This document shows positions 10,362-56,963 of a DNA stretch of 64,000 nucleotides, piece by piece. The notes under the pieces are model-generated. The model saw only the letters and a list, made by a program, of their open reading frames with translations, ran no database searches and was not told the origin of the DNA. Positions within the stretch are counted from its first letter, which is position 1. Each line of letters opens with the position of its first letter. Made by a program: the position numbers and the translations under genes. Origin of the DNA: Clostridia bacterium (GTDB taxonomy: Bacteria > Bacillota > DAOUPZ01); NCBI GenBank assembly GCA_030625885.1, contig DAOUPZ010000010.1, positions 29,812 to 93,811 on the forward strand, given 5' to 3'.

Positions 10362-10482
10362 ATCTCTTATCGAGAGATGGCGGAGGGACTGGCCCAATGA
10401 AGCCCGGCAACCGATCTTTGCACATTTGTAGAGACACGGTGCCAATTCCAGCAGAATACATTTATTCTGACAGATAAGGGGA
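10362..10482 (+). ncRNA. SAM-I (S-box) riboswitch.
   Basis: CTCTTATCGAGAGATGGCGGAGGGACTGGCCCAATGAAGCCCGGCAACC…GGTGCCAATTCCAGCAGA…GATAAGGGGAGG matches the S-box consensus, including the P1 halves CTCTTATC/GATAAG. Confidence 0.85.
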
Positions 10483-18447: not shown

Positions 18448-18870
18448 ATGGAACTTAGCAACTTAAATATTGAAAAATATTTGAAACAAAATGGTATTAA
18501 ACCGTCCTATCAAAGAATAAAAATTTTTGAGTATTTGGTAAAGCATCGCAATCATCCCACGGTAGATATAATTTACCAGGAATTAGTCAAAAATATACCC
18601 ACGCTTTCTAAAACCACTGTTTATAATACTTTAAAGTTGTTTTTAGAGAAAAGAATCATACAGTTAATTGTTATTGAAGAAAATGAAACGAGGTATGATG
18701 CGGATATTACAACACATGCGCACTTTAAATGTGAAAAGTGTGGTCGTGTTTATGATATTCGAGTGGATCTGACGGAAATGAAAATTGAAGGATTAAAGAC
18801 GTTTCAAGTTAAAGAGAATCATATTTATTTTAAGGGTATTTGTGAAAAGTGTCTGAAAGAGAATAAGTAA
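18448..18870 (+). CDS. Fur-family metalloregulator (PerR/Zur-like).
   Basis: HPTVDIIYQEL…TVYNTLKLF DNA-binding helix. HAHFKCEKCG…CEKC metal site. Confidence 0.8.
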   Translation: MELSNLNIEKYLKQNGIKPSYQRIKIFEYLVKHRNHPTVDIIYQELVKNIPTLSKTTVYNTLKLFLEKRIIQLIVIEENETRYDADITTHAHFKCEKCGRVYDIRVDLTEMKIEGLKTFQVKENHIYFKGICEKCLKENK

Positions 18871-19173
18871 AACTCCCAAGAGGTATTTTGGGAGTTTTTT
18901 TTGTGTTTAAGGGAGTTTCAAAAGAAGTATTTATCAAACATTAAATAATATATATTTGCGCATAATATGAAAGATATAGTTGAAAACCATTATTAATTTT
19001 ATATTTTATCTTTAATTATGAAATGTGTTGAAAAAAGACGAAATATGCCGAAATATTAATCATTATTATCATAATTAAAACATTTTAGCCATAATAATAA
19101 TTGATATAGTATAAGTTATTTTGTATAATGAAACTGTTGAAGATGTTGTAATTAAGATAATAGAAACATTGGC

Positions 19174-19300
19174 AGAGTATTCAAGAAGAATGCTATGGTA
19201 GATCTAAGAGAAACCTGAGGGTGGCTCAAAGGAAGACCAATATTTTTATAGCGAAGCTCATATTTTGAGTAGGCGCATAAAAGTATTGGTTATTTTTATT
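19174..19300 (+). other. Conserved leader-like element A (~125 nt) ending in a terminator-like hairpin AAGACCAATA/TATTGGTT plus T-run.
   Basis: Aligns over its whole length with element B at 19810-19918 (GAAT..TGGTRG.T.TAAGRAAAACCTGAGGGTGG.TC..AGGAAGACCAAT.TTTTTAT…ATTGGT.T.TTTTT). Confidence 0.6.
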
Positions 19301-19353
19301 TCGTAAAAAATAGTAGCAATTGTAATTGTTGGAATCTGAGAGGATGTGAGATC

Positions 19354-19803
19354 ATGACTGATTTTACCGATAAAATGGGAAAGACAGGGAAGTCTAACAA
19401 TAAGCAAAAGCAAAATGGTAACAACTCAAGAGACATCAAGTTAAATAACCAACAGAGAAAACAAATGCAGCATGAATTAAAACTATATATGGAAAAATAT
19501 TTTAAACAGAAATTAGGCAAAGGTGTTGATTATACTAAAATAGTAATCTGGGATGATATGCTTATCATTCGAGGAGAGAGTTTTTTAACGGAACCAGAAA
19601 AATACATTGTTCAAACACCTATGGGGCGGGATGTGGTTAAAGCAGCTCGGATGGAGGTCGCTAGACAGCATTCCATAGATAATCTGGCATATTTTGAAAA
19701 AAGGCTAGGTGCTACATGTATTCATCAAGTTTATGATATAGAATCAGAAAAGGATTATTGGATCCATGTGATGGTTTTTGATCGAGTGTTGACAGAAGTA
19801 TAG
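19354..19803 (+). CDS. Hypothetical protein with a K/N/Q-rich N-terminus.
   Basis: 149-aa ORF, RBS GAGAGGATG upstream. Flanked on both sides by the leader-like elements. Confidence 0.5.
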   Translation: MTDFTDKMGKTGKSNNKQKQNGNNSRDIKLNNQQRKQMQHELKLYMEKYFKQKLGKGVDYTKIVIWDDMLIIRGESFLTEPEKYIVQTPMGRDVVKAARMEVARQHSIDNLAYFEKRLGATCIHQVYDIESEKDYWIHVMVFDRVLTEV

Positions 19804-19809
19804 AAAAGG

Positions 19810-19918
19810 GAATATTTTGGTGGTTTTAGGAAAAACCTGAGGGTGGTTCTGAGGAAGACCAATGTTTTTATGACGTACTCTATTCTGAGTGTGTGCATGA
19901 GAATATTGGTCTTTTTTT
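19810..19918 (+). other. Conserved leader-like element B, upstream of the alcohol dehydrogenase gene.
   Basis: Second copy of element A. Terminator-like AAGACCAAT…ATTGGTCTTTTTTT. Confidence 0.6.
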
Positions 19919-19986
19919 GTACTAGAATGATTTCTAAAAGGTTTTAAGGGTCAACAGGCCTTAAAATAAATAAAAAATAGGGGGAA

Positions 19987-21051
19987 TTGAACATGAATCA
20001 AAAAACAATGAAAGCTGCAGTGTATCATGGACCGGGGGATATGAGATTGGATGAGGTGCCGGTACCTCAAATTATTGAACCAGATGATGCTATTGTTCGG
20101 GTAACGACATCGACTATTTGCGGAACTGATATTCACATTGAAGCAGGTGGTATGCCAGAAGTTGAACCTGGACGCGTTATAGGTCATGAATTTGTGGGAG
20201 AAGTTGTAGAAGTGGGTCCAAATGTAAGAAATGCTAAAGTAGGGGATAAAGTAGCTGTTTCTTGTGTCACACAATGTGGAGAATGCTTCTATTGTGTTCG
20301 TGGAGACTATTCCCACTGTACAACTGGAAGCTGGATTTTCGGTTATATGATTGATGGCTGTCAGGCTGAATATGTTCGTGTCCCACATGCTAACATGGGA
20401 TTGCATCAAATTCCGGAAGGGCTAACCGAAGAAGATGTATTATTTGTGGGTGATATCTTATCTACAGGTTATTTTGGCGCAGAAAAAGCAAGAATTCAAC
20501 CTGGTGACACAGTAGCAGTAATGGGTTGTGGTCCTGTTGGAATGTGTGCTATGGCAACAGCAAGATTATGGGGACCTTCACAAATTATTGCTGTGGATAT
20601 GAATCAAGATCGATTGGATATTGCGGTAAAAGAAGGTATTGCAGATATTGCTATTAATCCTGCAAAAGAAAATGCTGCGGAAAAAATTAGAGAATTGACT
20701 CAAGGTCGTGGTGCTGATGTAACAATCGAAGCAGTAGGGGCAAAAGGAACTTATGAGTTAGCGCTAGACGCCGTAAGAGCAGGTGGAAATGTTTCAATTA
20801 TAGGTGTATTTGAAAAACCACAAGAATTACCAATGAATAAATTATGGATTAAAAATATTAATATCAGCATGGGATTGGTTACTGCTAACCGTATTCCAGA
20901 ATTAATTAAACTCATTCAGACTGGAAAAATTAACACCAATTTCTTAATTACACATCGGGCACCACTAAATGATATTCTTAAAGGTTACGATGTTTTTGGC
21001 AATAAGAAAGACAATTGCCTAAAATGGATTGTTACACCTTTTGAAAAATAA
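19987..21051 (+). CDS. Zn-dependent medium-chain alcohol/threonine dehydrogenase family oxidoreductase.
   Basis: CGTDIHI…GHEFVGEVVEVG catalytic Zn site. C-x2-C-x2-C-x7-C structural Zn site. GCGPVG NAD fold. Confidence 0.85.
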   Translation: MNMNQKTMKAAVYHGPGDMRLDEVPVPQIIEPDDAIVRVTTSTICGTDIHIEAGGMPEVEPGRVIGHEFVGEVVEVGPNVRNAKVGDKVAVSCVTQCGECFYCVRGDYSHCTTGSWIFGYMIDGCQAEYVRVPHANMGLHQIPEGLTEEDVLFVGDILSTGYFGAEKARIQPGDTVAVMGCGPVGMCAMATARLWGPSQIIAVDMNQDRLDIAVKEGIADIAINPAKENAAEKIRELTQGRGADVTIEAVGAKGTYELALDAVRAGGNVSIIGVFEKPQELPMNKLWIKNINISMGLVTANRIPELIKLIQTGKINTNFLITHRAPLNDILKGYDVFGNKKDNCLKWIVTPFEK

Positions 21052-22478: not shown

Positions 22479-23027
22479 ATGAAAAAATTTGTTTGTTCTG
22501 TTTGTGGTTATGTACATATGGGAGATACTGCGCCAGAAAAATGTCCGCAATGTGGTGTAGCAGCAGATAAGTTTATTGAAAAAGTTGAAGGCGGAGATTT
22601 GAAATGGGCTGATGAACATAAAATTGGTATCGCAAAAGGGTTAGATCCGGAAGTGGTTCAATGTTTAAAAGATAATTTTATGGGTGAATGTACGGAAGTG
22701 GGGATGTACTTGGCAATGGGTCGTCAAGCGGATCGGGAAGGATATCCTGAGGTAGCAGAAGCTTATAAAAAAATTGCTTTTGAAGAGGCAGAACATGCCG
22801 CAAAATTTGCAGAGCTTTTAGGGGAAGTCGTTGCCGCAGATACCAAAACCAATTTACAAATGCGAGTGGATGCAGAACATGGTGCTTGTCAAGGTAAAAA
22901 GGATTTAGCAACAAAAGCAAAAGAACTCGGTTATGATGCTATTCATGATACGGTACACGAAATGTGCAAGGATGAAGCGCGTCATGGCTCCGCATTTGCT
23001 GGAATGTTAAAAAGATATTTTGGCTAG
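22479..23027 (+). CDS. Reverse rubrerythrin (N-terminal rubredoxin-like domain plus ferritin-like diiron domain).
   Basis: CSVCGY…CPQCG rubredoxin motif followed by E…EAEH diiron helices ([20 protein letters not shown]). Confidence 0.8.
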
Positions 23028-56815: not shown

Positions 56816-56935
56816 ATATGTCTCTTCGGGGTGGGTGCAAGTCCCAACCGGCGGTTAAAGCCCGCGAGCCACATCATGTGGTTGATTCAGTGTAATTCTG
56901 AAGCCGACAGTTAAAGTCTGGATGGGAGAAGAGGA
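56816..56935 (+). ncRNA. FMN riboswitch (RFN element).
   Basis: TCTCTTCGGGGTGGGTGCAAGTCCCAACCGGCGGT…AGCCCGCGAGC…GGTTGATTCAGTGTAATTCTGAAGCCGACAGT.AAAGTCTGGATGGGAGAAGAGG matches the RFN consensus. Confidence 0.9.
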
Positions 56936-56963
56936 TTTAGAATAATTTTGTAGTGATATGTAT

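Follow-up and report, generated by a model that had tools for sequence, protein, structure and literature searches.

A widely conserved hairpin-plus-terminator RNA adjoining DUF2294 genes, a candidate target of protein-dependent antitermination

A stretch of 64,000 nucleotides (nt) from a Clostridia bacterium (contig DAOUPZ010000010.1, positions 29,812 to 93,811; hereafter the window, to which all coordinates refer unless another locus is named) contains an operon in which two consecutive genes are each preceded by a copy of the same RNA element, and it is this element and its partner gene that we describe here. The first gene, 19354..19803 on the + strand, encodes a 149-residue protein of the DUF2294 or 'MpsC' family (Pfam PF10057, E 5.6e-25), and the second, 19993..21051 (+; start ATG 19993 as given by the gene call), encodes a Zn-dependent alcohol dehydrogenase (Zn-ADH) with ADH_N and ADH_zinc_N domains, for which the closest solved structures, 5yln and 4cpd, are both generic alcohol dehydrogenases (ADHs). 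Both copies of the element are on the + strand, copy A at 19192..19244 (covariance model 73.9 bits, E 6.5e-15) and copy B at 19814..19866 (71.8 bits, E 2.2e-14), and each is a hairpin whose base overlaps a terminator. The best promoter match of the region, a sigma-70-like TTGATA-17-TATAAT at 19101..19129 (+), agrees with the consensus at 11 of 12 positions; it is a consensus match only, but it is likely that the operon transcript starts there, about 60 nt 5' of copy A. A further promoter-like sequence, TTGACA-16/18-AATATT/TATTTT at 19789-19818, lies within the 3' end of the DUF2294 gene just 5' of copy B, and is probably fortuitous because its TTGACA comes from conserved V-L-T codons and is absent in the L002 orthologue.

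The original prediction for this region, made from the letters of the window, was of two look-alike leaders, each with a terminator-like platform and T-run, and both features are borne out at the places given. Positions 19188-19249 and 19810-19871 align without gaps at 81% identity across 62 nt, and 19261-19297 and 19881-19917 at 76% across 37 nt (pairwise alignments); in a global alignment the mean column identity of the two leaders is 79%. The 31-nt core pattern AAACCTGAGGGTGGNTCNNAGGAAGACCAAT has just two occurrences in the 64 kb, where none is expected from 100 shuffles, and in an unfiltered covariance-model search of the whole window copies A and B score 74.0 and 71.8 bits, the next match being at 14.7 bits (E=0.43). 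At the end of both copies there is a T-run preceded by a long hairpin (AAGACCAAT...ATTGGT(C/T)T), and the full-length minimum free energy (MFE) folds have energies of -42.5 and -47.1 kcal/mol, with z scores of -5.2 and -7.0 relative to dinucleotide shuffles.

Copy A contains the four helices P1 (UGGU/ACCA, 19196-19199/19236-19239), P2 (19203-19205/19230-19232), P3 (GAG/CUC, 19208-19210/19225-19227) and P4 (ACC/GGU, 19213-19215/19220-19222), the last of which carries a variable apical loop (19216-19219); all are on the + strand, as are the half-sites GGUAG (19197-19201), AAACC (19211-19215), GGUGG (19220-19224) and AGACC (19234-19238) discussed below. Terminator A (19235..19300, +; -25.2 kcal/mol) consists of a hairpin at 19235-19291 and a T-run, ends at TTTTTATTT, and has a 5' arm that shares the ACCA at 19236-19239 with the P1 3' strand of copy A. 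In copy B, P1 (19818-19821/19858-19861) starts 14 nt past the DUF2294 stop codon, there is one compensatory change relative to copy A (G-C to A-U in P3, read from the alignment), and terminator B (19854..19918, +; hairpin 19854-19914, T-run to 19918; -32.2 kcal/mol) likewise overlaps the P1 3' strand. In the full-length MFE folds P1 is displaced by the terminator and P3 and P4 remain, and the basal helix is thus the sole mutually exclusive part of the structure.

We searched for homologues with a covariance model built from six copies, using two samples: 83 sources picked solely by DUF2294 protein homology, and loci picked by a degenerate DNA pattern of the hairpin, one genome per species, to which the model was then applied. 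All counts of RNA copies, genes and loci given here are among the matches listed from public collections. The model has 190 matches in the protein-picked sources, nearly all on the coding strand, and 131 in the pattern-picked loci, for more than 320 overall and about 200 distinct sequences. DUF2294 homologues are plentiful, mainly labelled Syntrophomonadaceae, and their loci repeat the DUF2294 - Zn-ADH pair with both leaders. Matches are found in Syntrophomonas (including S. wolfei subsp. methylbutyratica) and other Syntrophomonadaceae, in Syntrophaceticus schinkii, Thermacetogenium, Gelria and Syntrophothermus, in Sporotomaculum, Desulfoscipio and Desulfosporosinus as well as Desulfotomaculum-group bacteria, in Acetobacterium and a Bacillus species, and in a few metagenome-assembled genomes labelled Deltaproteobacteria. 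About 15 pattern matches in Actinobacteria, Proteobacteria and Bacteroidia, which serve as negative controls, are without a covariance-model match.

In the model-fitted alignment 91% of the cells are paired and both-side changes occur in 9 of 13 pairs, and none of 500 shuffles matches the observed paired fraction, both-side change count or covariation score. Because that alignment had been fitted to the model, 117 diverse copies were re-aligned by MAFFT alone, and from this structure-blind alignment RNAalifold independently predicts P3 and P4, in which G-C is exchanged for A-U and C-G for U-A. In the same alignment 84.5% of the 15-pair structure is paired, compared to 33-56% for slid partners, and double changes are seen in 11 of the 15 pairs; pairing is weakest in P2 (61%), and since P1 is nearly invariant (GGU/ACC) its pairing is neither supported nor contradicted by covariation. 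Compensatory changes, a fixed orientation and a fixed place relative to genes are what is generally looked for in a structured cis-regulatory RNA, and all three are seen here, with 213 of 228 distinct elements occupying one of the DUF2294-linked positions detailed below. The prediction that a cis-regulatory RNA is used twice in one operon is thus upheld by covariation in homologues, together with the terminator overlap described below; the lack of such covariation, which it had named as grounds for giving it up, is not what we find, nor are the copies dispersed repeats with no link to 5' untranslated regions (UTRs), since they lie on the coding strand in 5' UTRs and intercistronic leaders.

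With gathering thresholds, Rfam 15 has only FMN and SAM matches in the whole window and none on the element; at E<=10 on 18850-20050 the best matches are chance-level miRNA and snoRNA models and SAM-III, and none is on the hairpin core, in agreement with the claim that the leaders fall outside known riboswitch classes. The SAM-III match (19917-19995) was discarded as a chance one, at 19 bits against a threshold of 45. The two leaders are therefore copies of a widely conserved hairpin-plus-terminator RNA that is absent from Rfam 15. The FMN riboswitch at 56818-56937 (+; 109.6 bits) and the SAM-I riboswitch at 10364-10480 (+; 88.5 bits) are ordinary known elements.

Some variation in the form and number of the units is seen. 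The apical loops at L010 2309-2379 and L009 2344-2412 contain an extra G+C-rich insertion of about 20-25 nt, which places the loop outside the conserved core. In some loci the interval from DUF2294 to ADH is occupied by a tandem series of two or three complete units, each with hairpin and terminator, about 125-260 nt apart (L019 2911, 3095 and 3284; L025 2533 and 2791; L028 2921 and 3105; L067 2888 and 3098; L081 2945 and 3069), and loci L019 and L017 have two DUF2294 paralogues each.

The hairpin has a pronounced two-fold symmetry. Each strand of the stem reads 5'-GGUNG-N9-ANACC-3', so that either end of the stem has a module, a GGU/ACC helix with a closing G.A pair, and the two modules are related by a two-fold axis. 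Among the 117 diverse copies the 5' GGUNG half-site is GGUGG in 67, GGUAG in 25 and GGUUG in 12, and the 3' GGUNG half-site is GGUGG in 71, GGUAG in 12 and GGUUG in 7; the apical ANACC half-site is AAACC in 60, AGACC in 20 and AUACC in 9, and the basal one AGACC in 64, AAACC in 31 and AUACC in 7. Of the 117 copies, 106 have the closing G.A pair in the apical module and 103 have it in the basal one. This shared spectrum of variants is as expected for two equivalent binding sites, and to judge from its sequence the RNA is built like a palindromic operator, with two equivalent modules on a two-fold axis.

The ACCAAT of the P1 3' strand is where a strong hairpin with a trailing T-run begins in 98 of 111 distinct copies. 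These terminators are mostly A/U-rich, and their basal G-C pairs are the ACC/GGT that P1 would sequester, so that holding P1 should disable the terminator, as in the logic of an ON switch. P1 is only 4 bp and the terminators are in the range of -20 to -30 kcal/mol, from which it follows that an external factor must clamp P1. A longer P1 was considered and discarded: extension into the conserved AAU(A/G)UU in two registers gives about 50% pairing, with no excess over shuffles, and the flanks of P1 form a duplex with their own partners (-1.23 kcal/mol) no better than with swapped ones (-1.30 kcal/mol). We note that this AAU(A/G)UU after the ACC (19239-19244 and 19861-19866 in the window; alignment columns 61-66) is more than 90% conserved at most positions, despite lying in the terminator stem, and that an inner CUCGG...CGAG hairpin is common to many of the terminator interiors.

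The association of the element with DUF2294 is close to absolute. All of the 93 distinct DUF2294 genes with sufficient flanking sequence have an element no more than 300 nt downstream, none being without one, and 76 of them have an additional upstream copy; the median distance from the DUF2294 stop codon to P1 is 23 nt. Conversely, when 228 distinct elements are sorted by their position relative to DUF2294, 115 are directly after a DUF2294 gene, 92 directly before one and two between two such genes (209 of 228 in these three positions), three are in tandem behind a copy that adjoins DUF2294, one is at a contig edge, and 15 are elsewhere, at short-chain dehydrogenase (SDR) genes or a second ADH in the cluster, or as divergent orphans and remnants. 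DUF2294 is the invariant partner of the element, and the link to oxidoreductases is secondary. The prediction had tied the element to an oxidoreductase and a 'hypothetical protein' gene as the two genes regulated; the tie to the latter holds, this gene being DUF2294, although it is the constant companion of the RNA and not merely a target, and the oxidoreductase tie falls to second place.

Several exceptional copies are found at other genes. At locus L106 (3950-4800, - strand) a truncated 3' end of DUF2294, the element and a truncated 5' end of ADH are followed by a large catalase gene; we considered catalase as a regulated gene, with a link to oxidative stress, and discarded this because the locus is a broken DUF2294-element-ADH cassette. 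In Sporotomaculum and Desulfoscipio (L159 6292-6343, -; L147 5003-5054, +) the element precedes a 227-amino acid open reading frame without a Pfam match, the first 14 or so residues of which are those of an ADH N-terminus. From their sequences, these 'orphan' elements at catalase and at ADH-like N-termini appear to be cassette remnants. A divergent orphan hairpin of a variant sequence (GGAGAACCU...AGAGGCUCC...AGAACCAAU) with its own terminator lies upstream of the DUF2294 promoter at L003 2621-2673 (-) and L122 2646-2698, and also at L053, L059, L125, L089 and L141; the gene downstream of it is inconsistent among loci, and it might be a short decoy or small RNA transcript, or a relic.

The genes that follow the element vary by lineage. 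For the 131 matches in the pattern-picked loci, the first downstream gene is Zn-ADH in 50, DUF2294 in 48, a short-chain dehydrogenase in 13 and another gene in 11, with the contig ending before any gene in nine. The Bacillaceae DUF2294 genes (52-59% identity by tblastn) are without an upstream copy, and have the element and terminator a few nt past the stop codon, followed by a target operon of cytochrome b561, 4Fe-4S ferredoxin and aldehyde:ferredoxin oxidoreductase genes; this layout is present in Bacillus sp. FJAT-29814, Neobacillus niacini, a Neobacillus sp. and two metagenomic relatives. In Desulfosporosinus the element is followed by a gene for a transporter of the MFS family, and in a lineage with a 36%-identical DUF2294 by genes for a 2-hydroxyacyl-CoA dehydratase activator and dehydratase.

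At greater distance the RNA itself changes. The loci with DUF2294 proteins of about 32% identity (Robertmurraya and a relative; L169 and L170) contain a related but diverged hairpin, TTGCG...AGACC..GGCAGC..AACCAAC, in which TTGCG replaces TGGTG and the terminator overlap is kept, the terminator now pairing ACCAAC with GTTGGT; it is found both upstream and downstream of DUF2294, ahead of genes for electron transfer flavoprotein (ETF) and FixC-like proteins. The distant paralogues near the ETF-beta/alpha and FixC-like genes, in Bacillaceae-like genomes, are at L169 1986-2700 (-) and 2780-3430 (+) and at L170 2780-3620. One of the L169 paralogues has the element upstream only and an ordinary terminator after the gene, and after the other distant paralogue the hairpin has diverged further, to GGGGUCUC..GGAGAGC..AAGACUAAC. 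Taken across lineages, these comparisons indicate that the RNA and DUF2294 diverge together.

The DUF2294 protein offers few clues to function from its relatives. PF10057 is its sole Pfam match at E<=10 and there is none in NCBIfam, and a Pfam search of the neighboring proteins reveals no CAT_RBD, PRD, HutP or ANTAR domain. An AlphaFold2 model (window 19354-19800; pLDDT 83) predicts a disordered N-terminus, next a basic helix, and after these an internal duplication of an alpha-beta-beta unit. The model has no significant match in the PDB or among viral structures; the non-significant PDB matches, on which we do not rely, include an archaeal TRAPPC3/Bet3 protein and an H-NOX domain (TM ~0.33). 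The TRAPPC3/Bet3 and H-NOX folds are related to small-molecule-binding V4R domains, and these model matches are a weak hint that DUF2294 may bind a ligand. In Staphylococcus aureus, deletion of mpsC gives no phenotype, and its authors place mpsC outside MpsAB (PMC6689103).

On balance we favor the interpretation that the element is an antitermination target of the BglG/LicT or HutP kind and that DUF2294 is the RNA-binding protein that acts on it, and we regard this as somewhat better supported by the sequences than not. The original prediction had listed a protein-responsive attenuator among its options, and DUF2294 is probably the trans-acting factor that this option calls for. Transcription would begin at the promoter near 19101-19129, and each leader would fold first as the 53-nt dyad-symmetric hairpin with its two identical modules. 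By default, the ATTGGT downstream would invade the 4-bp P1 and complete a terminator of about 20 bp, whose sole basal G-C pairs are those of P1, and transcription would stop. Active DUF2294, either as a dimer or by means of its internal alpha-beta-beta duplication, is envisaged to clamp both modules; with P1 held, the terminator would lack its G-C base beside the U-tract and RNA polymerase would read through. Copy A would then provide positive autoregulation of DUF2294 and copy B a gate on Zn-ADH, which would be the regulated target gene in the window. The signal sensed is probably an aldehyde or carbonyl compound or a related redox cue, as suggested by the targets Zn-ADH, SDR and aldehyde:ferredoxin oxidoreductase. 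The sequences establish how the RNA folds, that its base overlaps the terminator, that it is conserved and that DUF2294 is its obligate neighbor; the RNA binding by DUF2294, the sense of the effect and the nature of the signal are inferred.

A broader proposal, on which we are evenly divided, is that PF10057 is an unrecognized family of RNA-binding antiterminators, each encoded in a cassette with its own dyad RNA operator and terminator, and that its specificity subfamilies switch on redox enzymes in anaerobic and facultative Firmicutes, including Zn-ADH, SDR, tungsten-type aldehyde oxidoreductase, ETF and 2-hydroxyacyl-CoA dehydratase. If DUF2294 is an antiterminator, the Pfam name of PF10057, 'Na+-translocating...', is misleading.

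Several observations weigh against a role for DUF2294 as the RNA-binding factor. Its adjacency is equally expected if DUF2294 is merely the most frequent target of a riboswitch, and the co-divergence of the RNA with the gene could stem from shared descent alone. The 15 of 228 elements that are not directly adjacent to a DUF2294 gene would require it to act in trans, and a small ligand would account for these just as well. There are also pseudo-symmetric RNAs whose ligands are small molecules, such as the c-di-AMP riboswitch. Lastly, the AlphaFold2 model has no significant fold match in the PDB (the best is at E=0.08 with TM ~0.3) and matches none of the known RNA-binding folds, and a PDB search with the protein sequence has no match.

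The strongest alternative, which we consider possible but less probable, is that the element is a new riboswitch for a small molecule or ion, acting as an ON switch in which the ligand stabilizes P1 and blocks the terminator, with DUF2294 as its commonest target and having a ligand-related function; the ligand could be, for example, an aldehyde or carbonyl compound, or NAD(H) or another redox dinucleotide. The overlap of an aptamer P1 with a terminator is classic for riboswitches, and conserved purine-rich internal loops lie between the covarying helices, although the conserved positions are mostly within the helices, and form two identical modules instead of a single pocket. The regulated genes have a common theme of aldehyde, alcohol and carbonyl redox chemistry (Zn-ADH, SDR, aldehyde:ferredoxin oxidoreductase), and some copies are at SDR or second ADH genes with no adjoining DUF2294; a riboswitch nonetheless leaves unexplained why all 93 DUF2294 genes lead into an element at a median of 23 nt whatever gene comes next, and why the Bacillaceae DUF2294, which directly precedes the element, is not itself under its control. 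Riboswitches in tandem or within operons have precedents, as do simple hairpin types (nhaA-I for Li+, DUF1646 for Na+), but a riboswitch core normally stays the same for a given ligand, and here distant DUF2294 lineages have an altered one. A P1 of 4 bp with no extension would also give a small ligand little leverage.

It is unlikely that DUF2294 binds the element with the opposite effect or at another level, such that binding of the apical module favors termination and autoregulation is negative, or that mRNA stability or processing is what is controlled. The apical module (P3/P4) persists in the terminated fold and could be bound there, and the autoregulatory leaders of RNA-binding proteins are often repressive; however, only the basal module is mutually exclusive with the terminator, and a symmetric protein on both modules can only oppose it. 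Moreover, the terminators are far more stable than P1 without a factor, so the default is already OFF and a repressor would add nothing.

It is most improbable that the leaders are a locally duplicated terminator repeat or a T-box (tRNA) leader with no specific sensor of their own, for while the window copies are 81% identical and contain an AGGGUGG that resembles part of the T-box sequence, about 200 distinct copies across many genera show covariation and a fixed gene context, the 64 kb contain no more than the two coding-strand copies, and Rfam RF00230 is without a match at E<=10. The tRNA-responsive attenuator that had been offered as an option was dropped on these grounds: the AGGGUGG is not conserved, being partly in a variable loop, and the element is 53 nt compared to about 200 nt for a T-box, with neither a Stem I nor a specifier loop. 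The dispersed repeat was likewise discarded, because an unfiltered search still reveals just the two copies in the window.

Other features near the operon include a PerR-like gene of the Fur family just upstream (18448-18870; NCBIfam PerR 120.9 bits, under the family cut-off), with a strong bidirectional terminator at its end (18869-18898), and a 480-nt AT-rich spacer ahead of the promoter (region 18871-19100) with several inverted repeats (e.g. 19062-19080/19083-19101) that resemble Fur/PerR-box palindromes. A rubrerythrin gene lies at 22479-23027. The PerR-like gene, the box-like repeats and rubrerythrin could reflect an oxidative-stress context, or be a coincidence.

If the antitermination interpretation is correct, it would define a new class of cis-regulatory RNA with about 200 distinct representatives, give a function to DUF2294/MpsC, and extend the few known antiterminator proteins by a new family with a new fold. 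It would also reveal a dedicated circuit for aldehyde and alcohol redox in syntrophic oxidizers of fatty acids and acetate (Syntrophomonas, Syntrophaceticus, Thermacetogenium), organisms that are central to methanogenic digestion and whose gene regulation is almost unknown. Should the RNA instead prove to bind a small molecule, the finding would be no less noteworthy: the element would then represent a new class of riboswitch, possibly one that responds to an aldehyde or redox cofactor. The system is small, with a 53-nt RNA and a protein of about 140 residues, and is open to direct in vitro work.

A search of the literature, plus two Breaker-lab motif catalogues, revealed no description of the RNA motif and no RNA link for DUF2294. 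Several known systems have a similar logic. The ANTAR proteins (EutV, AmiR, NasR) are similar in that they bring about antitermination by way of an RNA structure in competition with a terminator, but their targets are two small hexaloop hairpins, whereas the element here is one long hairpin with a variable loop, and no ANTAR protein is nearby. The nhaA-I Li+ and DUF1646 Na+ riboswitches are, like the element, single long hairpins that have conserved internal loops and a terminator platform, and the c-di-AMP ydaO riboswitch shares its internal pseudo-symmetry; no Rfam model fits the element at E<=10, the genes here are not those of transporters, there is an obligate protein-gene neighbor, and the core varies by lineage. 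HutP of Bacillus subtilis is a small first-gene regulator of about 150 residues with its RNA target and terminator directly downstream and with ligand-activated binding, and the order of a small regulator gene, an RNA target with terminator, and catabolic genes is alike; however, the HutP hexamer reads single-stranded UAG triplet repeats, where the element here is a folded hairpin with dyad symmetry; the two window copies have no UAG triplets conserved between them, and DUF2294 has neither a HutP domain nor a fold match.

The closest likeness is to the ribonucleic antiterminator (RAT) systems of BglG, SacY, LicT and GlcT, in which the 5' arm of an intrinsic terminator is partly taken up by a short hairpin, interrupted by two internal loops, and protein bound to this hairpin prevents termination. 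The CAT dimer of LicT clamps a quasi-symmetric RAT hairpin. The two systems differ in several respects: the protein here belongs to PF10057, with an alpha-beta-beta unit present twice in a core of about 115 residues, in place of CAT-PRD (the adjoining protein matches PF10057 only, with no CAT or PRD domain), and there is no link to the sugar phosphotransferase system (PTS); the RNA, of about 45-53 nt, comprises four short helices, has the GGUNG-N9-ANACC dyad and is unrelated in sequence; and the targets are redox enzymes instead of sugar-utilization genes. The RNA class is new and the protein family probably so, and the kind of mechanism, terminator-based attenuation by an RNA-binding factor, is a known one. 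As in the RAT systems, hairpin and terminator are mutually exclusive, here in both window copies and 98 of 111 distinct homologues, and the gene order is the same: the arrangement of copy A, DUF2294, copy B and ADH in the window parallels that of E. coli bgl (RAT/terminator - bglG - RAT/terminator - bglF), and the Bacillaceae DUF2294 loci parallel those of licT, glcT and hutP, with the regulator first, then the RNA target and terminator, and then the target operon.

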